Source of the DNA: a virus
IMG/VR virus record: IMGVR_UViG_3300009104_000006
Span: 38,094 to 102,093 of that record
DNA: 64,000 nt
Direction: 5' to 3' (one strand)
In this document: one piece after another, positions 42,166 through 64,000 of the stretch
How positions within the stretch are numbered: the stretch's first letter is position 1
How the letters are laid out: the number at the start of each line of letters is the position of its first letter
Position numbers and translations under genes: made by a program
The notes under the pieces: generated by a model
Databases searched by the model: none
Told to the model about the DNA's origin: nothing
What the model saw: only the letters and a program-made list of their open reading frames with translations

Positions 42166-42878
<713 letters not shown>

Positions 42879-42882
<4 letters not shown>

Positions 42883-43094
42883 AGACATTCTAAGCAACTC
42901 CCAATCATACTCATAGCAGCAGAATCATCGGTGCCCCAATAGATTCCCTTACCACACTTTGGACAATGTGAATCAAACTCCAGTCCTTGCCAATCATATG
43001 GACCGCCGGGAGCCTTTTTGCCTTCTTCATCGTAGGTATTACCTGTGCCACTGGACTCTTTGAGAAAAATCCAAGCCTTGTTGAATGCTGTCAT
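42879..43094 (-). CDS. Small zinc-finger protein with N-terminal AF..AW..LK leader
   Basis: MTAFNKAWIFLKE...CPKC...CLEC. Confidence 0.7.
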
Positions 43095-43099
43095 AATAA

Positions 43100-45169
43100 T
43101 CACGCGTGTAGTATTGTATCCTTGCTAATGACCTTGAAGGTCTTAGGCAATATCTTGAGTGCAGAGCGTATTGGCCCCTTATCCTCTGGAATAGGAAGCG
43201 GTGCCTCCGTAATGAAATAGTCATCAATTAGTATGTCGATAGATTCTCTGTCTGCCCCAGTGCCCTGTTTGACGAAAGACAGTCGTATCATGTCTGCATC
43301 TGTTTGAGCAGTCTCATCAGTATCGTCGAAATGGTCTACTGCTCTCCTTACCTTATGGTAGAAAAGAGGGTCATCCACGATAATCTCCATCTCAAGGTCA
43401 TATTCAGTCTTACCTTCCACAGCGAGTTTAGGGTTTCTTGTTCCAGCATGGGGCACTTGGTCTGTCGCCGCATCTGCTATGTTTGCTCCGCTGATAGTGT
43501 AGAATTGCTCAACTCCAGTCTTACCATTCAGAGTAAAAGATACTACCTGCCCTAATGTGGTTCCCGCTACGCTTATCGAACCATTGTAAAACATAAACGG
43601 CTTTTGTGTGCCCTTCTCGATACCTGCCTTCTTTCGCTCAACCTCATTATTAGCGGTGTCCTCAAAGAGCCTGTGCGTATCGTATCTATCTCCTTTTGTG
43701 CTTTCTAAGCGCCCTGTATCGGTATAACAAAGAGCAGAATCAAAGTTTGTAGTGAGTCTTAGAGCAGCATCTGTATCGGCGGTCAAACTGAAGTCCTTGA
43801 CTTTACAGCCCCTGAATACACGAGTGAGTTGCTTGGAGTCAGATGGACCACCGTCTGTGACTTCATTAGTGACAGCGCTGTTACCACCATCGCTATCATT
43901 TCTCCTAATGCTAACTTCCATTGAGAAAGATGGTATTGTGCTTCGAGAAAAGAAGAGATGCTCAACGGGTTGAGTTAGATTACCTGTGCTACTGTCTCTA
44001 TGTGGACTACCGTTGCTTGAGTCTGTTTGATACTTAGCGAACTTCACGACTAAATTATTTGCATGGTCATACAATAGAGAGTCGTCCAACCAGACTGAAT
44101 ACTCTGCCCCATTTCGTTGCACAGCCGCTATCCTTCTAACCTCAGTTTTGAGAGCCTTATCGAATATCTGTGTGGCTCCTACATTGGGCCAAGCGTCTGC
44201 TAAAAGCCCCCCACCCACACCAGTATCTCTGTATGTTTGGATATCGACCATCTCTGTCGAAGAGTCAAGAATGATGTAATCGCCCGGAGCGAGTTGCACG
44301 CTATTTATCGTAGGCCAACTACTGTTTCCATCAAACATCAAGAAATTATCGCCTGCGCTAACTGAACCAAGAAGACTGTATGTGTTACCACCAGTCTCCT
44401 TTGTGTTAGCATGTAATTTCACTACCTCTTGACCGAGGCAGTAGTTAAACCATCTACCATTGTGAATGTTGCACTCGAAAGAGCCTCCTTGATTGAGATA
44501 TCTACCCGGAACTTGCACTGCTACATCACGACCAAGACCAACCACATGGTAACGCTTGAGGTCCACTTTAGTCTCCGGTAAGGCTATAGTGCTGACCAGT
44601 CCAACGAATTGGTCAGTCAGAACACGCTCCACAGATTCATTGGCAGCATCATTATGAACCATACTGACATCTATTGTCGGCGTAGTGAAGGAGTGAATAT
44701 ACATGGTATCCCCAGCCTTTGAGTCTTTGTCGGCAGTAGTATGGTCCGTTTTCAACGCAGGAGTGACTGTAATCTCAGTCTTGTTGTTATTTTGGCTATT
44801 CGTATCATTTGCGACTTCCTGCTTAATGATGGTATATGTCCTACCAGTTACAGAATAATCATCATCGGTGCTCCAATTAGGACTGGTCGAACCTATTGAG
44901 AAGGTCACCTTACTGCCTACAAGCATCCCATTGGGATAACGAAGGATTCCGCTATTCACCGGAGTATTAGCCGCACCACTATCAAAGACAATCACACTGG
45001 TATCCTTAGTGAGATTCTGATGTGGTGCATTAGCGGGTGCGGGAACATTCGGGTCAAAAGATGCTGTGAACTTGAAATTAGACCCCGCATAACCATGATT
45101 CAAAGTCAAACCAGTCTCGTGACCAAAGGTCACTTCTGTTAAATCACCCTTGTAGACTGTGGACGGCAT
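43100..45169 (-). CDS. Major tail (tube) protein with inserted domains
   Basis: Sits after the terminator and before the chaperones. Tube-like motifs V.FG.ET, PSFS.E, F.GCKV..F.L, PF.F..G. Confidence 0.75.
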   Translation of the reverse strand: MPSTVYKGDLTEVTFGHETGLTLNHGYAGSNFKFTASFDPNVPAPANAPHQNLTKDTSVIVFDSGAANTPVNSGILRYPNGMLVGSKVTFSIGSTSPNWSTDDDYSVTGRTYTIIKQEVANDTNSQNNNKTEITVTPALKTDHTTADKDSKAGDTMYIHSFTTPTIDVSMVHNDAANESVERVLTDQFVGLVSTIALPETKVDLKRYHVVGLGRDVAVQVPGRYLNQGGSFECNIHNGRWFNYCLGQEVVKLHANTKETGGNTYSLLGSVSAGDNFLMFDGNSSWPTINSVQLAPGDYIILDSSTEMVDIQTYRDTGVGGGLLADAWPNVGATQIFDKALKTEVRRIAAVQRNGAEYSVWLDDSLLYDHANNLVVKFAKYQTDSSNGSPHRDSSTGNLTQPVEHLFFSRSTIPSFSMEVSIRRNDSDGGNSAVTNEVTDGGPSDSKQLTRVFRGCKVKDFSLTADTDAALRLTTNFDSALCYTDTGRLESTKGDRYDTHRLFEDTANNEVERKKAGIEKGTQKPFMFYNGSISVAGTTLGQVVSFTLNGKTGVEQFYTISGANIADAATDQVPHAGTRNPKLAVEGKTEYDLEMEIIVDDPLFYHKVRRAVDHFDDTDETAQTDADMIRLSFVKQGTGADRESIDILIDDYFITEAPLPIPEDKGPIRSALKILPKTFKVISKDTILHA

Positions 45170-45183
45170 GGCTCTCTCTCACC

Positions 45184-45633
45184 TCATGGGATTGGTTCTG
45201 CAAAGATAACTACTTCTATCTGGAAGGTCATTCTGAACAATTTCTTGCTCCTATCGGACAAATCCGTGCGTGTTTTGTATACTAACCTATCGAAATTAAC
45301 GCCATCGCCCTTTCTCTTCAGATGAATGCACCGCCTCAACTCGTTTTCCATCTCCTTAAGTTGCCTACGATTTCTCGTAGTCCGCATATCCACCGTGATA
45401 TTGATTCTGGTTGTGACAAAATCGTAGAGCATCTCAGGTAGTTCTTCGTTATGTGCTGTCTCGAAAACGAGAATATAGTCCGACCTATCAAGGTCAAGAC
45501 GCTTACCTCGCTCAGGCGTCACATCGGCAATATCAATGATGATAGGCTTGTAGTTGCTCGTATTTGCCCTATTCCAATTGTCCTTGAGGACATCCAAAAT
45601 GACATCTATTCCTTCTTTGAAGGTGGCAACCAT
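45184..45633 (-). CDS. Putative tail terminator / completion protein
   Basis: 149 aa, directly upstream of the tube gene, with a terminator-like alpha/beta pattern. Confidence 0.6.
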   Translation of the reverse strand: MVATFKEGIDVILDVLKDNWNRANTSNYKPIIIDIADVTPERGKRLDLDRSDYILVFETAHNEELPEMLYDFVTTRINITVDMRTTRNRRQLKEMENELRRCIHLKRKGDGVNFDRLVYKTRTDLSDRSKKLFRMTFQIEVVIFAEPIP

Positions 45634-45911
45634 TTCTTCTTCCTCCTTGCTTTATCATGAGCGTCCCAATCTGGTAATACTGAATTACCATTGAACCTAA
45701 GTTTCTGCTCAGTCAATATAGGCGATTCAGTTAGCATACGTCTATCCACAATATCAGGATTCTCCTCTTGAGACTTTACTAAATCGTGATACTGCGTAGA
45801 ACCTTCTATAACGCCCTTACGTAATTCCGCTTGAGTTTCTGCTTGAGTGAACTCCTTCTCAATCACTTCTTTCCACTCATCGTAGACTATTCGTTCGGTA
45901 TCATCACCCAA
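45606..45911 (-). CDS. Hypothetical neck-region protein
   Basis: TTG at 45911 preceded by GAGGTG. The ORF track starts it at 45944. Confidence 0.6.
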   Translation of the reverse strand: MGDDTERIVYDEWKEVIEKEFTQAETQAELRKGVIEGSTQYHDLVKSQEENPDIVDRRMLTESPILTEQKLRFNGNSVLPDWDAHDKARRKKKWLPPSKKE

Positions 45912-47472
45912 AGACGACCACCTCAATATATCGTGCGAAAACACGGTCTACATCTGCTCGATAGAGTTGAATCTTAGATGCCAAGTCCACATTCTGTGTT
46001 CCTTCCGGTATGAGAACGCTACGGTCATCATTCATCAATAAATCAATTGCTACCAACTTAGTGCAGATATCCTCTATACCCTTATCCACATAGCGCTCAC
46101 CATAGATGTAAGATGTCTTGATTGCATTCCACTCAAAGAATGGATATGAGTTGTTGAAGTATATGATGCCCATCTCGTGGTCGAGCCACCAGTCTCGCAG
46201 TCTGCCCTTGTCTCCGCTTGAACTACCGCCTTGGAGGTCTATCTGTAACTGGTGTTGAGTGAGAACCCCTGCTATATCAGAAAGAGCAGAGCCTACTACA
46301 ATCACACATCCAGTGAAGGATGTGGCAGTTTTTCCTGTATAACGAAAGACGTCACCGCTCGCATCGACGACGACGCCCGTTTCTGCAAATCCACTTGTAG
46401 TATCTACATTGATAGTTGTAGAAGAGAGATTACTGAATGTAGCCGTTGAACTGCTGGTCTGACTAATATCTATGTCGCTATCAGTGGCGACGATTGTGCA
46501 AGTCTCTCCTCCCTTTGTATCTCTCATACTGGTTATCTTGACGATGCCTGTCCCATAATCGGAATTGGCCGTAGCGAGAAATTCATTGTGGACTGCGACA
46601 TTAGCCGTATTACCCTCAAGAGTAAATGTAGGCGCAAAATCTACTGCGGTCTTTCCTACTCTGTCTTCTTTATTGATTAAGTCGGCCAGATTCTGAGCAG
46701 AAGTTGCCTTATCGAAGTCTGCTCGCCAATTCGCAGTGCTACTGCCGATTGAGAGGACACCGACGCTCCCATTGCCGGGTGAAACGACTATGGAACCGGA
46801 GAGGTCTCGCACATTGTCTGGTAGTGTGATTCTTGCCTCTGCTGCACCTATCTCTCGGTAGTCATCTCCTTGCCACAACTCCAATCGAAGTATCTGCTGA
46901 ACGTTTCTGAAGAGAAGTGGAGAAGTGCCGACGTAGTCAGTATAGTATCGACGACGATATGGCTTGTAAGTATCGAAGTTGATGTATTCCGCATTAACAA
47001 GATACGGTCTCCATGCATTGTGAGTTCTGTTGTCTATGTGGTCCTGCATACGAAGAATGACTTCCTCAACCTTAGCCTTAGTTAATCCACGAGTTCTTCC
47101 ATTGGTGAATGATGCCAGATTTTGCACATATGTATCATCTACCGCTTGGTAATCTGAAGTTGAGAATGACCCTGTAAAGTATAGGGCTACTCCATTGGTC
47201 CCCCCTTCAGCGATAGATGTAATCGTCTTCTCTATTCCCAATGCTTGCGCATCGCTGTAAATGAGAATTGTATCTCCTACTGAAAATCCGATATTTCTGT
47301 AATCGGCGCCCGTCACATATACTCTATCAGACTCAGAGTCAGCACTGACTGCGACGGCGTCTTGCGGTCCCATATCCAGTAGGTCTGCAACTTTCTGCGC
47401 CGTGGTGTAGACTACCTCAGTAGGGTCAAGAGGTCTTGTTTCGCCTTCACCGGGACTGAATACTTGTGGCAT
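45904..47472 (-). CDS. Putative head-tail adaptor / neck protein with inserted domains
   Basis: YTT...V N-terminus, I......ID helix, C-terminal SY.YG.....I......LVA pattern. GGAGG SD before ATG 47472. Confidence 0.65.
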   Translation of the reverse strand: MPQVFSPGEGETRPLDPTEVVYTTAQKVADLLDMGPQDAVAVSADSESDRVYVTGADYRNIGFSVGDTILIYSDAQALGIEKTITSIAEGGTNGVALYFTGSFSTSDYQAVDDTYVQNLASFTNGRTRGLTKAKVEEVILRMQDHIDNRTHNAWRPYLVNAEYINFDTYKPYRRRYYTDYVGTSPLLFRNVQQILRLELWQGDDYREIGAAEARITLPDNVRDLSGSIVVSPGNGSVGVLSIGSSTANWRADFDKATSAQNLADLINKEDRVGKTAVDFAPTFTLEGNTANVAVHNEFLATANSDYGTGIVKITSMRDTKGGETCTIVATDSDIDISQTSSSTATFSNLSSTTINVDTTSGFAETGVVVDASGDVFRYTGKTATSFTGCVIVVGSALSDIAGVLTQHQLQIDLQGGSSSGDKGRLRDWWLDHEMGIIYFNNSYPFFEWNAIKTSYIYGERYVDKGIEDICTKLVAIDLLMNDDRSVLIPEGTQNVDLASKIQLYRADVDRVFARYIEVVVFG

Positions 47473-48332
47473 TACTGTCCCTCCTCGTGCATAGTGCGAT
47501 GCCGTATTTCTTCTTCTTGGATACACCTGTTACATATTATTGAATTTACATCGGATGGTTGTAATGTCGCTTCACACTTTTCACAAGTCTCATATCTCTT
47601 ACCCGGTAAAAGTTTGAGATTGTAATTTGGGTCATCTCTTTTAGGGAAGGCATACGGACTACCATCTCGTGCTTTAGCAGAATCCTTGAGTAATCGGAAT
47701 GCAATATCCATTGGCTCACCAGTAATCACCCTTGCACCGCGTTTCGGCCAATCTATGTCCTCGTAATCAAATGGAACGGGATTCCGTTCATCACTCCATA
47801 TAGGTGGCTCTTCTTCTCCCAGTAGTCGCCTTTGCACCGCGCCCCAATCTGGCTCTTCTCCCTTTTCGGAGAAGGCGTCCCTCAATTCTTGGGACGTTAT
47901 AGTTTCACCAGCCAATAAACGCGCCTGCGCGCCGGCTGGAGTAAGGAGCGATTTTGGGGGGTTTCTATTCTCAAATTCCTTACCGGGAGCAGCCTCTTGA
48001 GGTATCATACTATGCATCCTCTCTCGCCAGATGTTGTATTGCTCTGGAGTCATACTGCCTCTGACCAAGGCCTTCTGGTCCTCCGCCTGTGCCGCCTGCG
48101 CCGCTTTCGCCTTCGCCCAGCGCGCCATTTCCCGTCCCTGAAGTTCTTGGCTATCCCGATTCATCATCTCGTCAATATCGTAATTGCTTGCTTCGTTCAT
48201 CTGTCGCTGAAAGTTTTTATTTCCGCGTCTGGGAATAGTATTATGTCTCTGCATTCTGGCATAGCCACCCCCACTCATCTGCTGTTCTGGGAGTCCTTTC
48301 AAGACGTTCCACGCTAAGTCAAACTCATTCAT
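47472..48332 (-). CDS. Hypothetical protein with two LK motifs and a C-terminal zinc finger
   Basis: MNEFDLAWNVLKG..., GEPMDIAFRLLKD..., CEKC..CNRC. Confidence 0.75.
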   Translation of the reverse strand: MNEFDLAWNVLKGLPEQQMSGGGYARMQRHNTIPRRGNKNFQRQMNEASNYDIDEMMNRDSQELQGREMARWAKAKAAQAAQAEDQKALVRGSMTPEQYNIWRERMHSMIPQEAAPGKEFENRNPPKSLLTPAGAQARLLAGETITSQELRDAFSEKGEEPDWGAVQRRLLGEEEPPIWSDERNPVPFDYEDIDWPKRGARVITGEPMDIAFRLLKDSAKARDGSPYAFPKRDDPNYNLKLLPGKRYETCEKCEATLQPSDVNSIICNRCIQEEEIRHRTMHEEGQ

Positions 48333-48634
48333 AGCCTCGCCTCCTCATTACGGGTTCCGAGGTTGTATTCCATAGGCCTATCGCAAGCGCCACAAGTAGC
48401 CCTCCATAGAAAGTGAAGCATACCACAGTGGGCACAACGTGTGCCAGCACCAATATCGAGTATGTCTGCGATATCAGAGGTTCTCGCCCTCTGCTTCTTA
48501 GTGATGCCCTTTAGCGGGGCATCGGTATTGATTTTCTGGTTGTCGTATTTAATGTCTGCACGAACATTTTGCTTGGCTGCTCTGCTGATGTCGTCAATAT
48601 CAAGTGTTTGTAACTCGAACTTGGACACCCACAA
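48329..48634 (-). CDS. Zinc-ribbon protein
   Basis: CAHC-x10-CGAC. The real start may be GTG 48628. Confidence 0.7.
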   Translation of the reverse strand: MWVSKFELQTLDIDDISRAAKQNVRADIKYDNQKINTDAPLKGITKKQRARTSDIADILDIGAGTRCAHCGMLHFLWRATCGACDRPMEYNLGTRNEEARL

Positions 48635-48643
48635 ACACCACCT

Positions 48644-48841
48644 TCATGCATAGTATGTGAGAACAAGAAACACATTTCCAAGAATAGTAATTGGCTCAGA
48701 TGCCACTAATGATGACGTAGAGGCTGCATCAGTAATCGTAGTATATGCTGCCGCCAATGCTGTTTCTGCCTTAGCCTCAGTGGAAAATTCCTTCGGGGCT
48801 ATCGGGCCGATAACTGCAAACTTTAGTGTTAGGTTAGCCAT
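48644..48841 (-). CDS. Small hypothetical virion-module protein
   Basis: GGTGA SD, co-oriented in the head operon. Confidence 0.65.
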   Translation of the reverse strand: MANLTLKFAVIGPIAPKEFSTEAKAETALAAAYTTITDAASTSSLVASEPITILGNVFLVLTYYA

Positions 48842-48858
48842 TTAGGTCACCGCCTGTT

Positions 48859-49134
48859 TCAGCGCTTACCCAATGCCCACCACTTACCAGTGTTTCCACT
48901 GACGCAATCTATTGTTAGGGAACCCGGTGCAGCGGTTGTAACGATAGCGAATGCTCCGTCTACTCCACCACCTGTGTTGTCTTCGGTATCACCAATGACG
49001 TTTCCAGCAAGTATCTCGGATAGTCCTGTGACTATTGTTCCAGTGTCTACGCTTGCTGCATTCCATGTTCCAGTAACCATCATTAGGTCACCCATTACGT
49101 GTGTTCTTGTGTCTGTTGTGCTACTAAATGCCAT
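48859..49134 (-). CDS. Small beta-rich protein, possible head decoration
   Basis: T/G-rich, G.I.TGL motif, ends W.A.G, located downstream of the capsid gene. Confidence 0.65.
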   Translation of the reverse strand: MAFSSTTDTRTHVMGDLMMVTGTWNAASVDTGTIVTGLSEILAGNVIGDTEDNTGGGVDGAFAIVTTAAPGSLTIDCVSGNTGKWWALGKR

Positions 49135-49140
49135 AATTTA

Positions 49141-49608
49141 TCACTCCATTTCCGTTTCGTCTTCTGCTACTGCTTCCTCAACAACTGGCTCTTCCACTAC
49201 TGGTTCAACTACTGCTTCTTCCACTACTGGTTCTTCCGCTATTGATTCTACAACTTCTGCTGCTTCGACTACTGATTCCTCCACTGGGGCTGGACTTAAA
49301 GCCTCTTCCACTAAAGAGAGAAGAGAACTCTTGGTCTTATAACCGCCAGCAATTGGTATTCCATTATCGTCGAGCCAAGCCATAATGTCGGCTTTTCTCC
49401 ATTGGCTGTCGGGAATGCCATCATTGCCCGCATCTGAATGCGGTGCTTCGTCGCCCTCAATGATATAATCGTCCTTGAGTAACCAATGCCTGTTCTCATC
49501 CAACCAAGATTGGGAGACGGTTCTTCTGCTTCCACGTATCCATTCGCCTATGGATGGGTCGCGTCCAGCACGAGAATACCACTTGCCTGCATAGGTTACG
49601 GTAGGCAT
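49141..49608 (-). CDS. Protein with HeH/SAP-like helical motif and acidic tail
   Basis: WRKADIMAWLDDNGI.....TKSSLL followed by E/V/P repeats. GAGGTGGGTGA SD. Confidence 0.7.
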   Translation of the reverse strand: MPTVTYAGKWYSRAGRDPSIGEWIRGSRRTVSQSWLDENRHWLLKDDYIIEGDEAPHSDAGNDGIPDSQWRKADIMAWLDDNGIPIAGGYKTKSSLLSLVEEALSPAPVEESVVEAAEVVESIAEEPVVEEAVVEPVVEEPVVEEAVAEDETEME

Positions 49609-49617
49609 TCACCCACC

Positions 49618-50016
49618 TCAGTTGTAAAATACCACAAGTTGTCCACTGGTTACAGTTCCGGTTGTGGGTAGTGTGACTACCAAACCGTCTATGGTTGCGC
49701 CGAGCGTCTGAGCATTCGCGCTTGTGCCGCCAGTTGCTATTGCTGTAAGAACAGAGGTTGCTCCGCCACTTAGTGTGACAGTGGCTCCATTAGTTGTTGA
49801 ACCAAGTGTAATCAATGCCATCTTGGGGGCCGGGTCGTATCCGGTCGCTCCATCGGAGTTTGATGGATGGAAAGTGCCCGGACCTCCGCCCGGATAAGTT
49901 ACATCTGCTGCTCCGTCAAGCCATTCTGTTGTGTCGTGAGAACCCGCTCTGAGTTCCCATGCCCCTACAAGGGTTGCCGTTGTGCTACTGCCTGTTACTG
50001 TTAATGTATCTGCCAT
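49618..50016 (-). CDS. Putative capsid decoration / minor head protein
   Basis: T/G/A-rich ORF right after the capsid gene, GGAG SD. Confidence 0.6.
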   Translation of the reverse strand: MADTLTVTGSSTTATLVGAWELRAGSHDTTEWLDGAADVTYPGGGPGTFHPSNSDGATGYDPAPKMALITLGSTTNGATVTLSGGATSVLTAIATGGTSANAQTLGATIDGLVVTLPTTGTVTSGQLVVFYN

Positions 50017-50054
50017 TTTTCTTCATCTCCTGTATATATTCCTGCCTTCTGGCC

Positions 50055-51221
50055 TCACTTCAAGTCCCTCAGACTTCCTTGCGACCCAAAGAAAGTGGTC
50101 CAAATCTCGCCCATTGTTCGGTAGAGTCCTTCTTGACCCAGCCTGTTGATGGCGAAGGGGTCGCCGGTCTCAATTCCCGACTCGAAGTATTGGGTCGGTA
50201 TTGCTGTGCTAAAGTGCAGGTAATCTGTATCTAAGAAGTAAACGCGACTGATAGAATCCGTCAGCATGTTCTTGGTTGGGATAATCGGGACTCCGTTGTA
50301 AGTAGCCACAATAAATCCGGCTTCCATTCCCGGAACACCCTTTACACCGTTGTAGGTGGGGGTGACTCTCTTCTCTTCCATGAACCTCTGCTGGCTCTGC
50401 AATAGTTGCTGCAGGCGCATTAGTGTGTCATATCCGGTTAGCATAACCTTGGGGTTACCACCACGGACCCAGAGTTTCTGGAACATCTCGTCAATCAAGT
50501 CGAGAGAAAGAACTCTGTCAGTTGAGACATTGCTCACTGCGTTGTTGCTCATCTCAGCGTTCGACCATGAGTTTGCACTCCTGTCGATACTGTATATGTC
50601 GAGGTCAGAGTCAGCGCTTAGATTGTCGTGACCATTAACCAGACCAGTTGTGGTAGTTGCGTTGTTGCTGTATGCTGCTGTAACTCGGTCCAAGGACTCG
50701 AAGTTGTTAGCGGCAGGTGTGTCCACATCAGTGCAAAGCATCTTGTTCACCATCTCAGCGTGATGTTTGCCCATTTCTTCCTTCATGACCGAGCGGATAT
50801 CTCCGAGGCCATCATCCTTGTCAGCGAGGAAAATCGCTGTCTCGGACATATCAAAGGTGTGTGCGATAGTCTTAGGCTTTGCAGCAACGTGCTGGAAAGT
50901 CGGCTTGACTGTCTCAGGCAGTGTTGCGTTCTCTGCAACTCCACCGTGTAGAGTGCCCGAATTGGGGCGACCAGTGATTACGCGCCATCCGCTTCGGTCC
51001 CAAGGCTTCTTGGGTAGAATACTGAAGGCGTTGAACTCTTGGTTCAGTTGCGACCAGACTTTGCGTCCATAAATTGCTTGGTAAGTTCCACCAGTGGTAG
51101 ACAGCATTGGGCTGTCTGCCTTGAGTAGTTCACTACCGGAGTAAGAATACCCCATTGCGTTCCCTGCGCCATAGTAATAGCGCTCCATGTCAGTTATTGT
51201 TCTTACGTAGTTTCGTGCCAT
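50055..51221 (-). CDS. Major capsid protein (HK97 fold)
   Basis: 388 aa, after the protease/scaffold. E-loop-like GGVAE..LPE...TF and P-domain-like YNGVPII motifs. Confidence 0.88.
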   Translation of the reverse strand: MARNYVRTITDMERYYYGAGNAMGYSYSGSELLKADSPMLSTTGGTYQAIYGRKVWSQLNQEFNAFSILPKKPWDRSGWRVITGRPNSGTLHGGVAENATLPETVKPTFQHVAAKPKTIAHTFDMSETAIFLADKDDGLGDIRSVMKEEMGKHHAEMVNKMLCTDVDTPAANNFESLDRVTAAYSNNATTTTGLVNGHDNLSADSDLDIYSIDRSANSWSNAEMSNNAVSNVSTDRVLSLDLIDEMFQKLWVRGGNPKVMLTGYDTLMRLQQLLQSQQRFMEEKRVTPTYNGVKGVPGMEAGFIVATYNGVPIIPTKNMLTDSISRVYFLDTDYLHFSTAIPTQYFESGIETGDPFAINRLGQEGLYRTMGEIWTTFFGSQGSLRDLK

Positions 51222-51254
51222 TTTTCATCATCTCCTAATTTTTGTTGTAGATTC

Positions 51255-52637
51255 TCACTCCGGGCTCAATGTCTTATCGGCCAATTGATGAACCTCATCC
51301 CAAGACATTTGTGCCAAATCCTCAGTCGAAGGAACCACTATTCCGGTGGCGCTCTCGGACTTCTTGAACTCCTCTCCTTCTTCTGCTGGTGTAGTCAAAC
51401 CATCAATGCGCTCTCCAAGTGCTTCGATGGACTTCTGGATAGACTCAAGTGGGCTGCGTGCATCGAATGCTGCTGCCTCTGCCTTGGTAATCTCGGCCTC
51501 TCTCTCGTGCGCGTAGCGTGTAGAGAACTGCTCTTCGAGACTTCCACGTAGTTCATTCTCAAGGGCTGCAGCCTTGTAAACTTCGTAAGCAGCCTCAATA
51601 TCTGAGTCTGTTAGTGAACGAGGGTCGATGAAGTCAGACTTCGCAACCTTGCCACTACCTGTAGTCTTACCGAGTGCGCCAGTTGAAGGCTTGCCACCCT
51701 CCTGCGCGCGTCCCTTAACCTGTCCAGTTCGCTGGAGATGTTGTGCTTCCATCTCTTCTGGAGTAGAGCCGAGGTTAGCCTTTTCCAAATCATCGAAGTG
51801 TGCGCGTGCGGCTTTTGTGTCCACACCGCCACTCTTCAGAGTGTCTTCCATCCAATTCAAGTAATCAGATGTAATGACGTCTGAGAACTCATTGGATTTC
51901 TCCACTGGCTCCTCAGTTGTATCTGCTGCCTCTTTCTTCTTGTCGTCCTTCTTGTCATCATCGTCCTTATCCTTACCTTCAAGGAAAGCAGGCTTCTCGC
52001 CCTTTTCCATATCATCCAAACGTGATTCCAAGCGCGTTAGAACGTCGCCCAGTTGTTTTGTCATATCATTTTCGTCGTTTTCTGTTGTCATATTGTTCAC
52101 TTCCGTGTCTTCTTTTAGTATACTGAATGTTGCTTCGGGGTTGATGCCTTTTTCACAAATCGTTATTTCGTGTAGTTCCAGTTTGCTTATTTCTTGGTAG
52201 TCGCCTCTTTTTGGGTCTGATTTTCTAACCCTTTTGAACGCTTGACCACCGATACTGAATCCTCTGAGAGCGCCTTTTCTAATCTCTGCTGAGACTTCCT
52301 TGGCTTTCTCGATGTCGTTACGGAGTTGCACTACTACAAACATCCCGACATCATCGACTTCGCTTTTCCACAACCTCCCTTCATTATCTGTGTAACTTGG
52401 AACCACATCGCCTACTTGTATATTGGAGTGCGCTAATTGGACGTTTCTGTAAGATGGATTTTCCATGAACTTACGAAATGCGTCCTTTAATGCCTCCTTT
52501 GTTATTACGTCGCCTTGCTTGTCTACAACTTCCACGCTTGCGTAGCCAGCGACAATGAGGTCGTTGCCACCCTTGAGGATGGCGATTGACTCATCGTCAT
52601 GTCTGAACAGTTGTTTACTACCGAGCACACTAACCAT
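51255..52637 (-). CDS. Prohead protease fused to C-terminal scaffold
   Basis: GYAS..VDKQGD, catalytic His in QLAH, Ser in GFSIGG, EITI...NP.A. C-terminal half is acidic and coiled-coil-like. Confidence 0.88.
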   Translation of the reverse strand: MVSVLGSKQLFRHDDESIAILKGGNDLIVAGYASVEVVDKQGDVITKEALKDAFRKFMENPSYRNVQLAHSNIQVGDVVPSYTDNEGRLWKSEVDDVGMFVVVQLRNDIEKAKEVSAEIRKGALRGFSIGGQAFKRVRKSDPKRGDYQEISKLELHEITICEKGINPEATFSILKEDTEVNNMTTENDENDMTKQLGDVLTRLESRLDDMEKGEKPAFLEGKDKDDDDKKDDKKKEAADTTEEPVEKSNEFSDVITSDYLNWMEDTLKSGGVDTKAARAHFDDLEKANLGSTPEEMEAQHLQRTGQVKGRAQEGGKPSTGALGKTTGSGKVAKSDFIDPRSLTDSDIEAAYEVYKAAALENELRGSLEEQFSTRYAHEREAEITKAEAAAFDARSPLESIQKSIEALGERIDGLTTPAEEGEEFKKSESATGIVVPSTEDLAQMSWDEVHQLADKTLSPE

Positions 52638-52672
52638 CCCACGTATTGCTTTACTACTTCAATGCTCCGCGA

Positions 52673-55600
52673 CTAATCCTCAAGACTTCTTTCCTCTAAA
52701 TCGATAGACTGCGCGGCATTTTTCTTCGCTTTCCTCCGTCTACCGGGATAGTCCTCTGGTTTCTCCATGTCCTCTGTAGGCCGCTTTCTCATATCCCAAT
52801 CCGGTAAAGACTCTTCACTATCCAACTTCGTAGGGCCGCGTGGACTCTCGGTTCCATCGCCCACATCATATCCAAAACCTCTTCCAGCCAAATTGCTGAA
52901 TCCCTTCTCCATCGCATCTATTGCGCGTTCTATGAGAATGAGCGTTTTGTAAACGTCGTTTGGCTTCATTATCAGATTCTTATCTTTCTTTGGTTTGAGT
53001 ATGCCAGCACTCTCTTCCTCTATCCTCTCCTCATCTATCTCAGGCTCTATCTCGGTATCTTCCTTTAACATCTCACTTAATGCTATTTTCCAATAAGGCT
53101 CAAGACTCTTAGCGAGGCGTAGAGAGTAATCTGAATCAGTAAGACTACCTATTGCTGCTATTGGCTCGATTGCCTCCCCATCTACTATCTCGTATTTCAC
53201 TAAGTCCTCTGGAAGATGTATAATGAAGTGACTATCATCAATCTCCATAGAGAAAGGTATGTGGAACTCTATGTCCGATTTTGCCAATAGAACCCACTTA
53301 GGGTGCTTTTCTTCTCCCTTCATGTATGTGGACTTTGCATCTCTCAAGAGTATCTTGTCAGACTCCTTACTCAACTCCTTCACTGCATTCTCCAAACCAA
53401 CTTCATCTGTAATTCTAATGTCAGACGGGCTGGGTATGAAAACAGGGTCGTAACTATCGAACTGTCCTCTTAACACTTTAATGCGCTCACGCGTAGAGAG
53501 GTCGTATACGACATCGTCATCATAGAGTAGAATATCATTAACGTAGAACTCTCCGTCTTGCATTACGCCATCTATTACGTAATCCTTCTTTCCGATTTGT
53601 TTGAAAGCACTCCTCATCTTCTCACTCATTGATTGTTTATTACCGCTATCGTCAAATACAGTCACGCGATTCTTCTTGCATTGCACTTTGCATCTTTTTC
53701 CATCCTTATGGATTGAAACGACCCATTCACCAGTGAATCCTCTTAATTGCTTCAAATCTTCAATGTCGAATATCCTATGAAGAGGGTCAATGAGCGGAAC
53801 TTGCTTCGGCAACTCTGCTTTGTCTTTCAGCAATAGATTGGAAATATGCATTGGTTCACTGTATCTAACAGATGGGAAGTCCGCTGATGGTGGATATCCC
53901 GTATCACTGGATGGAGTTTGTTGATTAGATAAGGTCGTTTCTTCAACTGGGTGGCTATCAATCAAAGTTTGTATATGCTCATTGGAATAGTTTGGAAACA
54001 TCATCTGTAACGTTTGGAATGGCACGGTGTGATAATAGCCTTCAGTAGCATTAGTGCCTACAACGATGTTATCGTCTTCATCGTGTTCAATTCCTATTTC
54101 TGGTGTAATCAGATAGCCATCATCCATGCCGCCACTAATATAGTGGTCATGAGGAATAGCCCCTTCTCCGCTATCATGTGATTCGATTGGGACATCATTA
54201 TACCATCCTACCGCTTTCTTTCCCTCAAAAGGGTCAAATTTGGCTTGAAGTGTTTCTCCTTGTAATGCCCCCTCATCGAATACAATAATGCTGTTTGCTA
54301 TATTCTTCATGTCAGTTAAATCTCTCTTATCACCAGTCTTGTCTTTGTGGGAGAACAATAATTCTCTATCTCCCAAAGGCTCGCCTAAGACCTTCTTTTG
54401 TGCCGTCATTGGATTCTTTCTACTGTAGTTAGGAGAAGATTGGAAGGTTAATCCATAGCCCCTCAATGAGTCAGGTTGGAGATTCACAACATTCCTAATT
54501 CCTCTTAATGCAGTATGACCCTCGTGGGATTTATCCCATGCACTTCGTAAAGCGCGTTGCTTTACTTGATATTCGGTGCTCTCGCGTCCAGTTGCTGCCG
54601 AAGTCGGATAACTCTCCTGAAGTTCTTGGAGTTTATCATCTAAGACAGTGTGGATATCTTTCCCTTTCAAACTCCCATATACCGACGGTGCCGGGATTTT
54701 CTTCCCATCCTTATCGAGAACAAACTTCCCCCTCTCGTCCTTCTCGTAATTCGACTGCCATTCTATTCCTGCCGTTGCTAATTGACCGAGAGTAGCAGCA
54801 GTAAAATCACCGCCGTGCACCTTCATCATATGCTTTACGTGTTTACGATGAGGCATATCGTCTGGTAAACCGAGTTTCTTCAGAATCATATGTATTGACT
54901 CATCACCAATTATCTTGCTTCCGACTTCACCTTGCCGCATCAAAGAGGCCAATCTATATTGCTCATCTGATGAAACTCTCTCTGGAGCATCTAATGCGTC
55001 TTTTGACCCAGTAGGTCGAACCCAAGCAGCGGGAGTAGTAAGACCTCCTCCCCCTTTCTTGTAGATACTCCTCATAGCACCTTGTAATGTAGCGGCAACA
55101 TTAGCAAGCGCTTTAGGATTGGTCGGATGATATGCAGAAGGATGGGCTTTGAGAACTTCTGGAATTAAGATATCACGAGCATAATTAGTAACAGCCTTTT
55201 TGTCGCCTCGCATAACATCCTCGTCTCTATCACGCCAACCATATTTCGTTTGCTTTTGCCTTCCACCATATTCACCCCTTGTGGTATGTGTTATCTCATC
55301 CCCGTATACCTTGTTGAACTTCGCCATGAGATTATCGTATCGTCTCATTATTGGATGGTCTGCAGGCAATTCCTCTGGAGGATTCTTCGACTTCATCTCA
55401 TCGAGTATAACATTGAAGTCTTCCAACTCATCCAATAAACCGGGGTCAAGCCTATCTTGGATATTTGAGCCTTTGAAGTGAGGCATCTCTGCTAAGTAAT
55501 CCATTGCATCCATATCGGGAGATGCTCGGAAACTTGGGTTATCCTCTAAATCTTTCAAGGTCGTATGCATTCTTTCACCGGGATTACCAAAAGCGTTACG

Positions 55601-58342
55601 CCTGCCATTGGCGTGGGCTTGTAGACGCGCTAATGCTGCTACTCTTCTTATTCCATAATCTCCCGGCTGCACTCTTCGTGCTATCTCTTCATCAGTCCAT
55701 CCCTTGCGGTTTGATAATATCGGCTCGCCATCTTTGTCAAGCACGAGTTCGCCATCCTTATCTTTCTTGTATTTTGAAGGAGGTTCCTTCCATTCTTTTG
55801 CTGTATTAGTCATAGTAGCAAAATTATGAGAATTGAAATGATGAGCCATGAGGTCTCTTGTAGTTAGGTTCTTCGTTTCCATTACAAAATTCTGTGGAGA
55901 TGGGTTTTCGTGCATAAATCGAGCCATAAAGTAAGGACTGCGAGTCGAAAGATATTGTGAACTGTTCGTCTTGATATTTCTTCCGGGGTGTCTTGCAGTT
56001 CCTATCCTGTGTAATGCGTGAGTATTTGTATCAGTCATAGACATAATACCATGCGGAGTATCGTGGTAGTTCTGCCCATAAGGAAGGAAATGAGGATGAG
56101 CACGTGCCCAAAGTCCCAACGTATCGTTATTAGGAATAATTTTTCCAGACCCCTCTTGTTCTCTGTCTCCTAACTCTGACGATATTCCCTCTCCCTTATT
56201 CCAATCAATATCATCGGCATGAAAATCATGCATTATATCCACATAAGTTGAAAGTTCTCTTCCAAGCCCTCCTCTATGCGCAAATATGCGCCTACCTTGT
56301 GGAAATCCTAATCCCTTGAGCCTTCCTTCAACATCTAAGTAGTGTTCTCGCTCTTCATCAGAAATGTCTTCAGACTTTGGTCCATGATTAACGATATGTG
56401 CTCCCATTGCTGACCTCATCTGTTTTGCACTAAGCGAAAGACCAGTTGCGTGCTTTAGATTTTTGAGAATACCTCGCATGATAGACTTGTTAATCAAAGG
56501 CTCTCTTCTCCCACTAAAGAGGGGGTGGCTCTTGTGCCTTACAGTCAAATCACGATTCCAGCCCATTAAATCCAGAAATCCCTCTGTTCCCAAAGCAATG
56601 TGACTATTATTTGTGAGTTTTTCGCTCAATGCCTCCTTTGCATCCTTCCCTTCTGATAAAGCGCTTTGAATGTCTTCTATATCTCTCTCACTAAACTTTG
56701 GAAGATTCTTGGCCTTACCGATAGGTAAGTCATTTGCATCTACCCTATCCTTACCATACTCTAAGAGGCCATCTCCTTCATAGGCCTCTTCGAGTTTTTC
56801 CATCACATGCTCTAATGCGGTCTTATCATACATCTGTTTTGGTTTCTTATCCATATCTATCTCCCCAGACGCGTGTCTCACATACTGATATGGTTCGCCC
56901 TCATGGATGCCATCATCTTTGACGAGTGTATTAGCCAAAGTGCCAGCAATCATGCCTTCATCTCCATGTATGAATGAATCATGCGGCGTTTCCTTATGCT
57001 CCGGCACATTAGCGCCCGAATGCATTCTGGCACGTTGAAACCAATGCATCTCTCCTTCTTGCCTTTGCTTCTTTGTCTGCTTTATGCGAGCCATAGAAAG
57101 ACGATGCCCATCATCAAGGTCAATGTATTGGTGTTCTGGGTCGTCTGTGCCATGTGTCGCCATATGCTCCATCGCAATAGTCCTCTCTTCTGGAGAAAGG
57201 AACTCCAATCCTCTCATCAAAGTCGAATGCCCCATTCCATGAGCATGGACTTTGGTCATATCTGCTAATGATTCTATTCCCTTTTTGTCCCATTCCTCAT
57301 AGATGCTCTTACTATCCTCTGGTTTGTAGGTTATAGGAGTAATATCATTACTGAGTAATTTCTCCATCCTATCATTGAAATGCTCCTCTTCCAAGTCCTT
57401 GCCTTCTTTGTCCAGCGCTTTGACTCTATCTTTGTGCTTCTCGGTATCTTCTTCATTGAAACCTCCCCAATCACCAGTTCCATTCTTCCATCTCTCGAAG
57501 TCTCTCAATCGTAATCCATGAAGATGGTTAGTAAATTCACTTTCATGTCCATCATCTCCACCTAAGAAAGAGAAGTTCCCATCAGGAACAGAATCGTAGA
57601 TAGTCTGCGTATCATATTCCTTAGAGCCGTCTCCAATTGCATCTTTCTTCCAATGTGCTCTATGCTTCTTTTCCGCGTTTGCTACCTTCTCGGCCCATTT
57701 ATTCTTACCTAAATAGAACTCCCTAAGCATCTGTTCCCATTCTGGTTTACCAGTATCAGCGCGAATCCTCCTTAATGGGTGCACTCTTTTATCAAAAGGA
57801 TTGACGTCAGTATAATTCTCTTCTGGTTCGGTTTCAACTCCTGTCTCAACCCAACGCGCTACCCCATCCTTATCTTCGATTTTCTCCCTTACAGGTCTCG
57901 TTCTCGATGGTAGAACTTCCGGCCAGAGGCCGTGCTTCATACTGATAGGTATCTTATTTCTCTCCATAAACTGCGAATGAGTTTCCCCCTTCCTCTTCTC
58001 AGTAAATAAGGGAAAATTGAATCTATCGTTATCGTTCTTATCAAAGGCCATCTTTATTCGTTGAAGCCAAGGATGACGTGTCCCCATTTCCATATGAAAA
58101 GCAGGTCGCCATGATGCGAATGGTTGGCTGCTTCTGCCCTCTTCTGCTTTTAGAAAATCGGAACTAAACCCCTGACAGAGTTCGTCTTCTGATGTAGAAT
58201 GAAACTCTATACCGTGATTCTCCAGATTTATCGTGGAAATAACATAGTCACCGACCTCTTGCTCTGGGTCGGTGCCGTCGTATATGGCCTTCAGTAATTC
58301 AGAACGATGACGCAGATAGACATCCATTGGACCTTCTCTCAT
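52673..58342 (-). CDS. Large (1889 aa) head-module protein with C-terminal degenerate ATP-dependent DNA ligase-like domain
   Basis: Ligase-like motifs WVVSIHKDGKR, VIDG, VNDIL, R...L, LLRDAKSTY..G....W. The rest is charged and His-rich with no family I recognise. Confidence 0.8.
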   Translation of the reverse strand: MREGPMDVYLRHRSELLKAIYDGTDPEQEVGDYVISTINLENHGIEFHSTSEDELCQGFSSDFLKAEEGRSSQPFASWRPAFHMEMGTRHPWLQRIKMAFDKNDNDRFNFPLFTEKRKGETHSQFMERNKIPISMKHGLWPEVLPSRTRPVREKIEDKDGVARWVETGVETEPEENYTDVNPFDKRVHPLRRIRADTGKPEWEQMLREFYLGKNKWAEKVANAEKKHRAHWKKDAIGDGSKEYDTQTIYDSVPDGNFSFLGGDDGHESEFTNHLHGLRLRDFERWKNGTGDWGGFNEEDTEKHKDRVKALDKEGKDLEEEHFNDRMEKLLSNDITPITYKPEDSKSIYEEWDKKGIESLADMTKVHAHGMGHSTLMRGLEFLSPEERTIAMEHMATHGTDDPEHQYIDLDDGHRLSMARIKQTKKQRQEGEMHWFQRARMHSGANVPEHKETPHDSFIHGDEGMIAGTLANTLVKDDGIHEGEPYQYVRHASGEIDMDKKPKQMYDKTALEHVMEKLEEAYEGDGLLEYGKDRVDANDLPIGKAKNLPKFSERDIEDIQSALSEGKDAKEALSEKLTNNSHIALGTEGFLDLMGWNRDLTVRHKSHPLFSGRREPLINKSIMRGILKNLKHATGLSLSAKQMRSAMGAHIVNHGPKSEDISDEEREHYLDVEGRLKGLGFPQGRRIFAHRGGLGRELSTYVDIMHDFHADDIDWNKGEGISSELGDREQEGSGKIIPNNDTLGLWARAHPHFLPYGQNYHDTPHGIMSMTDTNTHALHRIGTARHPGRNIKTNSSQYLSTRSPYFMARFMHENPSPQNFVMETKNLTTRDLMAHHFNSHNFATMTNTAKEWKEPPSKYKKDKDGELVLDKDGEPILSNRKGWTDEEIARRVQPGDYGIRRVAALARLQAHANGRRNAFGNPGERMHTTLKDLEDNPSFRASPDMDAMDYLAEMPHFKGSNIQDRLDPGLLDELEDFNVILDEMKSKNPPEELPADHPIMRRYDNLMAKFNKVYGDEITHTTRGEYGGRQKQTKYGWRDRDEDVMRGDKKAVTNYARDILIPEVLKAHPSAYHPTNPKALANVAATLQGAMRSIYKKGGGGLTTPAAWVRPTGSKDALDAPERVSSDEQYRLASLMRQGEVGSKIIGDESIHMILKKLGLPDDMPHRKHVKHMMKVHGGDFTAATLGQLATAGIEWQSNYEKDERGKFVLDKDGKKIPAPSVYGSLKGKDIHTVLDDKLQELQESYPTSAATGRESTEYQVKQRALRSAWDKSHEGHTALRGIRNVVNLQPDSLRGYGLTFQSSPNYSRKNPMTAQKKVLGEPLGDRELLFSHKDKTGDKRDLTDMKNIANSIIVFDEGALQGETLQAKFDPFEGKKAVGWYNDVPIESHDSGEGAIPHDHYISGGMDDGYLITPEIGIEHDEDDNIVVGTNATEGYYHTVPFQTLQMMFPNYSNEHIQTLIDSHPVEETTLSNQQTPSSDTGYPPSADFPSVRYSEPMHISNLLLKDKAELPKQVPLIDPLHRIFDIEDLKQLRGFTGEWVVSIHKDGKRCKVQCKKNRVTVFDDSGNKQSMSEKMRSAFKQIGKKDYVIDGVMQDGEFYVNDILLYDDDVVYDLSTRERIKVLRGQFDSYDPVFIPSPSDIRITDEVGLENAVKELSKESDKILLRDAKSTYMKGEEKHPKWVLLAKSDIEFHIPFSMEIDDSHFIIHLPEDLVKYEIVDGEAIEPIAAIGSLTDSDYSLRLAKSLEPYWKIALSEMLKEDTEIEPEIDEERIEEESAGILKPKKDKNLIMKPNDVYKTLILIERAIDAMEKGFSNLAGRGFGYDVGDGTESPRGPTKLDSEESLPDWDMRKRPTEDMEKPEDYPGRRRKAKKNAAQSIDLEERSLED

Positions 58343-58356
58343 GCATCATCACCTTA

Positions 58357-58491
58357 TCACCCATTCATTGGACATTGTTCTATGGGTAATCCTTGTTGTC
58401 GCCTACACCCCTCGCTGGGAGTAGCGCCGCATGTTCTACATGATGTAGAATCTATGACGCCTTTGATTACAGCAACTTTGGTCACACTCAT
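58357..58491 (-). CDS. Cys-rich microprotein (44 aa)
   Basis: Hand-translated: MSVTKVAVIKGVIDSTSCRTCGATPSEGC...CPMNG, with an ATGA overlap. Confidence 0.6.
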   Translation of the reverse strand: MSVTKVAVIKGVIDSTSCRTCGATPSEGCRRQQGLPIEQCPMNG

Positions 58492-58811
58492 CCCTCGACA
58501 AGCCTGTTTACGGTGTCGTGGGTGTTCTTCATTGGAGTATTATCAAGATTTATGCTCTCACTGGATGCTCCCTTATTAGCGACATCATCGGAATCAAGAA
58601 GTGATTGATTTGTGTTATAGAAGGCATTGTAAGTTTGTCCTCCACTCTCTGCCATGAATTGAACGCCACCCGGTCTCGTATCAAAAGTAGTTTCTGGATG
58701 GTGAGATGATTTCTGTATCTCTGCCTCATCTATGCGCTTCTCAAGTGCAATTGCTTTCATCAATAATTCTTGGACCTCGGACGAGGTTTCTTCATATCTT
58801 GGTTTTACCAT
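58488..58811 (-). CDS. Hypothetical head-module protein
   Basis: GGAG SD, coupled to neighbours, contains LMKA, LEKR and IQKS. Confidence 0.7.
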   Translation of the reverse strand: MVKPRYEETSSEVQELLMKAIALEKRIDEAEIQKSSHHPETTFDTRPGGVQFMAESGGQTYNAFYNTNQSLLDSDDVANKGASSESINLDNTPMKNTHDTVNRLVEG

Positions 58812-59158
58812 CAATACATCTCCTTTACTTCTCTATGTTGGTCTGCCATATCATGTATCTCATCCCAACTCATTTCGTGAATCTCAGTATTGCTAAACTT
58901 ATCTGGGTCAGAGGAGTCTGCCTCTGCCTTGAGAAGTCCGCCAGTCTGCACATCTGCTCTGAATGCATCCACTTCAACATCCTCTGATAGAGGAGTGCCG
59001 AAAGGGACAAAACCTGCTTTACGTAGGAGAACTTTTGGATTATCCATCATTCTCTTGAGAATAAGATTCTCTGCCTTTAGCGTCTGAACCTCATTATCCA
59101 TACTCTCCATCTTAGAGATGAGAGTATTCATGAGTTTTCCTGCGTCTCCTTCTTCCAT
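58811..59158 (-). CDS. Coiled-coil head-module protein with scaffold-like C-terminal motif
   Basis: N-terminal heptads. C-terminal EIHEMSWDEIHDMAD matches the scaffold terminus. Confidence 0.72.
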   Translation of the reverse strand: MEEGDAGKLMNTLISKMESMDNEVQTLKAENLILKRMMDNPKVLLRKAGFVPFGTPLSEDVEVDAFRADVQTGGLLKAEADSSDPDKFSNTEIHEMSWDEIHDMADQHREVKEMY

Positions 59159-59167
59159 TATATCGCC

Positions 59168-59518
59168 TCAAACTCTTCGTCCGAAAGTTCCCCTTGCCTT
59201 TTTCATAACATGGTTATTTCTTGCTGATAAGATGGTTCCGGGCAATTGATTGTCACGATACTGAGGGTCGAAGTTTGCACCAGATTGATTGAACTTCATA
59301 ACTTGCCATGAGTTATCGGGCGTTACTATTTCATCCTCTCCTTTCTTTACAGCCATAAGAAGGTCGTCCTCAAGAGTGCTTGCATACTTGATTATCTCCA
59401 TAATATGCTGTCTTGCGACATCTGCATTGCCATCTTCTATTGCTTTCGCAAGTTCTTCATTGTGGGCTGTCATTTTTCGCGCCATTGGGTGCATTTTGAT
59501 GAGGTCCATTGTCTTCAC
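59168..59518 (-). CDS. Hypothetical head-module protein
   Basis: 116-aa helical ORF after the portal. Confidence 0.7.
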   Translation of the reverse strand: MKTMDLIKMHPMARKMTAHNEELAKAIEDGNADVARQHIMEIIKYASTLEDDLLMAVKKGEDEIVTPDNSWQVMKFNQSGANFDPQYRDNQLPGTILSARNNHVMKKARGTFGRRV

Positions 59519-63991: not shown

Positions 63992-64000
63992 CTGCTCATT

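Follow-up and report, generated by a model that had tools for sequence, protein, structure and literature searches.

Unrelated proteins encoded in the DNA stretch studied here share one short peptide tag, and the head proteins encoded near them carry conserved lysine sites. Because of this shared label on unrelated proteins and these lysine sites, the swappable cargo is probably loaded into the virus head as in phage T4. The window (the whole stretch, 64,000 nucleotides [nt], bases 38094 to 102093 of the 102,093-bp contig IMGVR_UViG_3300009104_000006) is, judging by its genes, the minus-strand late block of a magrovirus-like archaeal tailed virus, and the published description of magroviruses matches its content (PMC5434244). 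We give a probability of about 0.55 to the reading that this virus combines a lysine-specific prohead protease of the HK97 type with a cargo tag like the capsid-targeting sequence (CTS) of T4. Most likely, a prohead serine protease of the S78 family, fused to the scaffold, would cut after Lys in the context hydrophobic-x-K↓small (the arrow marks the bond after the lysine). Its cuts would fragment the scaffold at eight conserved sites, release the protease itself at ILK↓E/Q, remove 34 residues from the major capsid protein (MCP) and 18 from a giant head protein, and split the latter again at a domain boundary. An amphipathic helix of 9 to 12 residues, F/M-D/N-x-A-W/F-x-h-L-K (h, hydrophobic), would be the docking label that recruits unrelated proteins into the assembling procapsid, among them small Zn-ribbon proteins, a protein with an ADP-ribosyltransferase (ART) fold and proteins with weak GNAT and HTH matches. 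The N-terminal label ends in h-L-K, equivalent to P3-P1 of the protease site, and may be clipped there, which would leave the cargo free within the head, ready to be delivered along with the DNA. Binding of the tag to a head component, tag cleavage and injection are the steps that we infer.

Two unrelated open reading frames (ORFs) with near-identical leaders, which the initial annotation had picked out among the tail and neck genes, are present in the window. The first (42879 to 43094, minus strand, ATG at 43094) encodes a 71-amino-acid (aa) protein with the N terminus MTAFNKAWIFLKE, made up of a 12-residue tag (M1 to K12; 43059 to 43094, minus strand), a linker and a CxxC..CxxC zinc ribbon; it lies between the gene for a tail-tube-like 689-aa protein and a SAP-domain gene. 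The second (47472 to 48332, minus strand) encodes a 286-aa protein that starts with MNEFDLAWNVLKG (tag M1 to K12; 48297 to 48332, minus strand) and sits in a variable cargo slot between a conserved 101-aa Zn-ribbon gene and a 540-aa structural gene. No relatedness between the two proteins was seen outside the tag. The 286-aa protein holds a further, internal copy, GEPMDIAFRLLKD / TGEPMDIAFRLLK (residues 204 to 216; 47685 to 47723, minus strand), which is the sole invariant segment in the alignment of its family. The N-terminal form has the 12-residue consensus M-x-[A/P]-F-[D/N]-x-A-W-x-h-L-K. A scan of the whole contig revealed five adjacent genes at contig positions 771 to 3697 that start with M-x-P-F-[D/N]-[Q/R]-A-W-x-x-L-K, and a sixth gene of this array (up to contig position 5271) that starts from GTG with MDPIDSAFDILK.

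A position-specific scoring matrix (PSSM) made from 128 tags was scored over 31,950 positions of this genome. Seven canonical N-terminal tags reached 25 to 36 bits (29.3 for the 71-aa and 25.6 for the 286-aa protein), two variants reached 13 bits (the internal copy of the 286-aa protein, at 13.2, and the GTG-start protein), and all other positions stayed at or below 6 bits. All nine copies are on the structural strand. Nine is a minimum count, since the genome is probably incomplete: the contig ends 9 nt upstream of TerL (window end, 63991 to 64000), and in a relative with 97% identity over the start of TerL, a further 11 kb of co-oriented genes is present there, some of them tagged. A placement of the tagged array directly upstream of TerL on a circular genome was rejected in view of this cut and of the extra 11 kb in that relative. 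Outside the window, an early-strand protein (contig positions 30038 to 30715, plus strand) has a tag-like N terminus, MMDPLAKAWEHLQ, that lacks the D/N and the final K; it scores 0.1 bits and is either a chance resemblance or a decayed copy.

The tag is a portable element on unrelated proteins. IMG/VR was scanned with a back-translated tag pattern, which matched at least 118 loci. The matches listed include at least 135 distinct complete tagged ORFs of 40 aa or more, and shorter ORFs occurred in only two matches. Two positions that the search pattern left unconstrained proved to be conserved in these 135 proteins, position 3 being A or P in 120 and position 10 L, I, V or F in 128, and conservation ends sharply after K12. 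With residues 1 to 14 removed, the proteins fell into at least 88 BLAST clusters of cargo, so that the initial view of a portable tag is borne out. The survey of attached domains that had been proposed with it found only Zn ribbons, GNAT, HTH and DUF6321 when 81 tagged representatives were compared with Pfam; the GNAT and HTH matches are weak, and tagged proteins had almost no matches in Pfam, PHROGs, PADLOC or PDB sequences. The earlier stress on Zn-finger cargo had to be dropped: at least two CxxC motifs occur in just 8 of 128 tagged proteins, and the cargo is neither unusually basic nor Zn-rich. An HExxH motif is present in some cargo. For a 148-aa tagged protein, an AlphaFold2 model with a mean predicted local distance difference test (pLDDT) score of 81 has an ART-type fold, with Tpt1/KptA, pertussis toxin S1 and PARPs as the top Foldseek matches (E from 5e-3, probability 1.0); the tag forms a helix (residues 3 to 15) on a low-confidence linker ahead of this fold.

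The junction after the tag indicates how it is attached. Residue 13 is Met in 18 of the 135 tags (p 5e-8), and untagged orthologues start at this residue (LK↓MARYKVGP versus MARYRAGP; LK↓QTRQSTLGEFHP versus MVSRQTELGEFHP). Because these orthologues begin exactly after K12, we conclude that the tag is a 12-residue module placed ahead of complete genes. A 367-aa protein with the layout tag-domain-tag-ART is a fusion of two tagged genes in which one tag per module was kept. One explanation for such a shared 5' coding stretch would be that it serves mainly as a recombination handle for cassette shuffling and that the peptide has little function. Some tag-coding stretches of the array are near-identical in DNA (two genes are identical over the 30 nt of tag codons 3 to 12), and the cargo slots are highly variable, as a handle would predict. 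However, the codons of the tag vary synonymously across viruses while the peptide is kept, no conservation was seen in the DNA upstream of the tag in the array genes, and nothing but the internal copies is invariant in the proteins that hold them, all of which makes a mere handle very improbable.

Internal and C-terminal copies are common in relatives and follow the consensus [T/S]-[G/S]-E-P-M-[D/N]-[I/L]-A-[F/W]-[R/Q]-L-L-K. Some proteins hold between two and four copies; in some cases, a copy is separated from the stop codon by about 10 residues or fewer. The codons preceding internal copies vary at third positions, which argues that selection acts on the peptide; for the same reason, we rejected the idea that the conserved G/S-E-P before these copies is a hidden ribosome-binding site for internal starts. 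Given the internal and C-terminal copies, the tag is position independent and, from its F-x3-W-x2-L spacing, is best described as a putative amphipathic docking helix. The position of these copies, together with a residue after K12 that is not limited to S, A or G, does not agree with a strictly N-terminal leader that is always cleaved. On another reading, the tag targets nothing and is simply a propeptide, one that holds harmful enzymes in check up to the point at which the prohead protease becomes active; this would account for the h-L-K ending and for cargo that looks enzymatic (the ART fold and the HExxH motif). A 12-residue helix on a 20-residue flexible linker is nevertheless unlikely to block the active sites of at least 88 unrelated folds, tiny Zn ribbons are among the cargo, and C-terminal copies cannot serve as N-terminal propeptides, so we hold this reading to be quite unlikely. 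A scaffold segment, DIEAAYEVYK↓AAA, was also considered as a model that the tag mimics; it is a loose regular-expression match in five homologues and falls outside the PSSM top 30, and we set it aside as a weak idea.

The second half of the proposed system is the processing of head proteins. As the initial annotation had anticipated, the pattern [LIVMF]-x-K-[SAG] is enriched in the head module (30 sites versus 13.8 expected, z 4.7) and is at chance in tail, early and array genes. Most of the signal comes from the protease-scaffold ORF (51255 to 52637, minus strand), with 13 sites versus 2.1 expected (z 7.5), and analogous patterns with R, E, D or Q in place of K show no such excess in this protein. 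The scaffold part alone has 8 sites versus 1.23 expected, a count reached by 0 of 2000 shuffles, while counts of the reverse motif and of the patterns with E, D or R in this part are as expected by chance. The excess (11 to 15 sites) is retained in 70 homologues down to 50% identity. The scaffold domain (51258 to 52082, minus strand) contains eight invariant K-[S/A/G] sites, at K212, 247, 268, 286, 333, 355, 402 and 426, and carries a C-terminal MSWDEVH motif. In an alignment of 61 sequences, all eight invariant lysines precede S, A or G, P3 is mostly hydrophobic, and P2 and P2' drift, compared with 3 of 17 nonconserved lysines of the scaffold part that precede a small residue (Fisher p 1.5e-4).

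The S78 protease domain itself (residues 1 to 175; 52113 to 52637, minus strand; Pfam PF04586, 39.8 bits versus a cut-off of 21) contains two invariant sites, AILK22↓G/A/S close to the N terminus and FSILK175↓E/Q at the C-terminal end of the domain. The protein matches the Pfam S78 families PF04586 and PF14550 as well as PHROG head maturation protease families. An alignment with HK97 gp4 (E 2e-7) places S128 on the catalytic S114 and K175 on K159↓S; the His falls in a shifted stretch. The HK97 protease cuts the capsid protein gp5 at K103/S104 (PMC10275583), in the sequence TFNK↓SLGS. Furthermore, the gp5 delta domain contains IQKA, LTKS and LIKS (4 sites versus 0.79 expected, p 0.006), and the mature part of gp5 is without excess. 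Since both the HK97 delta domain and its cut site match, the lysine code would be the ordinary specificity of the S78 family, unusually clear in this virus. Thus, the two systems share the protease family, an aligned catalytic Ser and the site form h-x-K↓S/A, enriched only in the scaffold part. They differ in architecture, in that the HK97 scaffold (the delta domain) is fused to the MCP and degraded, whereas the magrovirus scaffold is fused to the protease. In addition, the magrovirus MCP would lose at most 34 residues in the proposed processing, and HK97 is without a tagged-cargo family. HK97 gp4 is reportedly encapsidated via its C-terminal tail, a finding attributed to Duda et al. in 2013.

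Outside the protease-scaffold, further sites follow the same rule. The MCP has only one h-x-K-small site, at its N terminus, where the first 34 residues, ending in SELLK34↓A (51120 to 51221, minus strand), are a candidate propeptide that is invariant in 53 homologues; the site aligns with GGMSK102↓AD of the MCP of halovirus HVTV-1. Residues 1 to 102 of the HVTV-1 MCP, its N-terminal extension, include LAK↓A, LMK↓S, LRK↓A and MSK↓A, of which LRK↓A lines up with the extreme N terminus of the magrovirus MCP; from these sequences, the lysine rule may be common to cultured haloviruses. The 1889-aa head protein starts with MREGPMDVY..SELLKA, and its first 18 residues, ending in ELLK18↓A/S (58289 to 58342, minus strand), are likewise a candidate propeptide, with R.R..L[LM]K[AS]I kept in homologues of about 45% identity. 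A second conserved site, h-x-K1508↓A/G-[E/D]-LPK (about 53819 to 53863, minus strand, together with the insertion SEPMHISNLLLKD), lies at the boundary between the variable N-terminal 1500 residues and a conserved ligase-like C-terminal domain, which has a weak match to Pfam DNA_ligase_A_M. Three small head ORFs (116, 115 and 108 aa; 58488 to 59518, minus strand) have some conserved K-[S/A/G] sites; 5 of their 9 conserved lysines precede a small residue, the sites are partly conserved, and the signal is weaker than in the protease-scaffold.

These results sort the motifs that the initial annotation had grouped together. The recurrence of hydrophobic-x-K-small sites that it described is strong in the protease-scaffold and weaker in the small head ORFs, and it does not extend through the MCP beyond the single N-terminal site. 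Likewise, of the internal motifs that it had related to the tag, the copy in the 286-aa protein stands. The two in the giant protein do not, both being outside the PSSM top 30: SEPMHISNLLLKD is a lineage-specific insertion found in the closest relatives only and missing from most homologues, and EGPMDVY..SELLKA is a propeptide-like end. A directional, Lys-specific and conserved site pattern, as the earlier analysis had suspected, is supported in the scaffold, at the MCP N terminus, at both ends of the S78 domain and in the giant protein, and it matches the prototype cut of HK97. We regard lysine-specific processing of the head proteins as very probable. A separate motif, MSW[D/E][E/D][I/V]H, stands 8 to 15 residues from the C terminus of both the scaffold and the 115-aa protein (51258 to 51300 and 58811 to 58860), the latter ending with MSWDE[IV]H. 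Across all relatives (85 distinct ORFs), it was found only in the protease-scaffold and in a small head protein of about 110 to 123 aa. It possibly acts as a second address label, perhaps as an end by which scaffold and adaptor both bind the capsid.

Where the tagged genes lie bears on where their products go. Among the matches listed, tagged genes are co-oriented with structural genes at every locus with identifiable neighbors. One recurrent slot, the place of the 286-aa protein, has the conserved 101-aa Zn-ribbon gene immediately before it and the 540-aa gene after it. Another, the place of the 71-aa protein, follows the 689-aa gene, and relatives have tagged genes there too. Further slots are the interval between TerL and portal, positions after baseplate or fiber genes, and arrays beside an HMG-CoA-lyase-like gene. 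A scan of 596 Gb of cellular genomes with a stricter tag pattern gave 12 matches versus roughly 4 expected, and only two were real tags: one on a 106,262-bp contig of the Poseidoniales single-cell genome AG-422-I20 and one on a 6.7-kb contig binned as Flavobacteriaceae, both resembling magrovirus cargo families. Since the tag is essentially absent from these data, we conclude that it is viral and is not a copy of a cellular signal. The AG-422-I20 contig is of magrovirus size and bears a canonical tagged gene of a magrovirus cargo family (MKAFDQAWDLLKA...); found in a single cell of the host lineage, it is possibly a direct virus-host link.

Several points weigh against the preferred reading. 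Many copies are internal or within about 10 residues of the C terminus, and cutting at these places would set no cargo free. In contrast to the scaffold sites, A, S or G follows K12 in just 36% of tags, and E, M, Q and N are frequent there; tag cleavage, although plausible, is therefore less certain than scaffold cleavage. No receptor for the tag has been identified, and magroviruses are all uncultured. Finally, the AlphaFold2 model of the MCP has a pLDDT of 32 (shallow alignment) and does not place K34 relative to the HK97 N-arm. The missing receptor, the loosely constrained residue after K12, the independence of position and the F-x3-W-x2-L spacing, which is typical of helix-in-groove motifs, would suit a helix that docks to a viral or host hub protein other than the procapsid (a replication or assembly factory, a chaperonin or a polymerase) or to a membrane and so gathers late accessory proteins in the cell. 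We consider this unlikely: tagged genes lie in or beside the head-tail module, on the same strand and in recurrent slots, the absence of the tag from cellular genomes, including host-lineage ones, speaks against a copied host signal, the tag ends in P3-P1 of the predicted protease site, and the conservation of D5 and A7 is stronger than a generic membrane helix would require. On balance, loading into the head by the tag is modestly favored, and removal of the N-terminal tags has slightly less than even odds.

The closest parallel to the proposed tag is the T4 CTS, a 10-residue N-terminal peptide of IPI-III and Alt that is sufficient for loading and is removed by the prohead protease gp21; the CTS cargo Alt is an ART (PMC9026906). 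Both are short N-terminal peptides (about 10 residues) on unrelated, fast-evolving proteins, and both T4 Alt and one magrovirus cargo have the ART fold. The CTS ends in the cleavage motif of the head protease; the magrovirus tag ends in h-L-K, P3-P1 of the predicted site, but with a loosely constrained P1'. The T4 head core proteins are cut at many sites by one rule, as we infer for the magrovirus. The tag consensus, compared by eye, has no likeness to the T4 sequence MKTYQEFIAE, and gp21 has Glu at P1, whereas the S78 protease of the magrovirus, of the HK97 type, has a predicted Lys at P1; the Pfam matches of the latter include no family of the gp21 type. Because there is no likeness between the tags and the protease is S78 rather than gp21, the relation to T4 is one of analogy and not of descent. 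The magrovirus tag is also far more conserved than the CTS and occurs internally and at C termini, and the host is archaeal.

Encapsulin cargo-loading peptides offer a second analogy. They are likewise short and conserved, they direct diverse cargo into a shell with the HK97 fold, and they function whether placed at the N or the C terminus. They differ in having no sequence similarity to the tag and in being extended or short, usually C terminal and uncleaved. By this analogy, the tag could dock directly into the HK97-fold capsid shell or the scaffold, with the Lys-specific protease as the release switch, an idea to which we give rather low odds. Proteins with MuF or polyvalent head domains carry cargo that is covalently fused to a structural domain. 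The magrovirus cargo genes, unlike these, are separate and tagged, and Pfam found no MuF or other structural head domain fused to cargo in the 81 tagged representatives or the array proteins. In the jumbo phages SPN3US and phiKZ, ejection proteins with propeptides are reported, and many head-internal proteins are processed by the prohead protease (PMC7411985, PMC5694885). As in the magrovirus, a giant multidomain protein is encoded between portal and protease. Unlike the magrovirus, these phages are not known to have a single sharply conserved tag.

Magroviruses are abundant uncultured viruses of one of the commonest archaea in the ocean, and functions are known for only a minority of their genes. 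A head-loading label defined by sequence would assign a role as virion cargo, probably in host take-over or counter-defense, to dozens of gene families per genome. Full-text searches returned no report of capsid targeting in an archaeal virus, and the two main magrovirus papers are silent on the tag and the code; the proposal of such a system would be the first for an archaeal virus. The combination of a short peptide and a Lys-specific protease is directly testable with recombinant procapsids, and the lysine rule predicts where the mature forms of the capsid protein, the scaffold and the giant head protein begin and end. Because trypsin likewise cuts after Lys, such cleavages would be invisible in standard tryptic digests. 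If direct docking into the shell or scaffold proved true, sequence alone would suffice to list the whole set of proteins delivered by magroviruses into Poseidoniales cells, and cargo loading would follow one principle in viral capsids and encapsulins.

The remaining late genes fit the layout of a tailed virus. On the minus strand, the order begins with TerL (62528 to 63991, minus strand; Pfam Terminase_6C/6N), a 380-aa ORF, the portal (59550 to 61340, minus strand) and the three small ORFs plus a 44-aa ORF. These are followed by the 1889-aa protein, the S78 protease-scaffold fusion, the MCP and small head genes and then by the 540-aa structural protein, the tail-tube-like 689-aa protein, a tape-measure-like protein and a 5515-aa ORF. 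The MCP (50055 to 51221, minus strand) is HK97-like, of the SU10_MCP family, and is 33% identical to those of haloviruses HVTV-1 and HCTV-5; hundreds of close relatives were found among marine IMG/VR contigs. The 5515-aa single ORF (22939 to 39486, minus strand), 3' of the tape-measure-like gene, presumably encodes a giant tail or baseplate protein. Directly after the tagged 71-aa gene, among the tail genes, a 243-aa protein (42166 to 42897, minus strand) combines a DNA-binding SAP domain (Pfam E 1e-11) with long acidic runs rich in PE/E. The 380-aa ORF between TerL and portal (61322 to 62464, minus strand) had no Pfam matches; it contains GFLDADGYI, which resembles the LAGLIDADG homing-endonuclease motif, and it is kept at the equivalent place in relatives at 46 to 98% identity.

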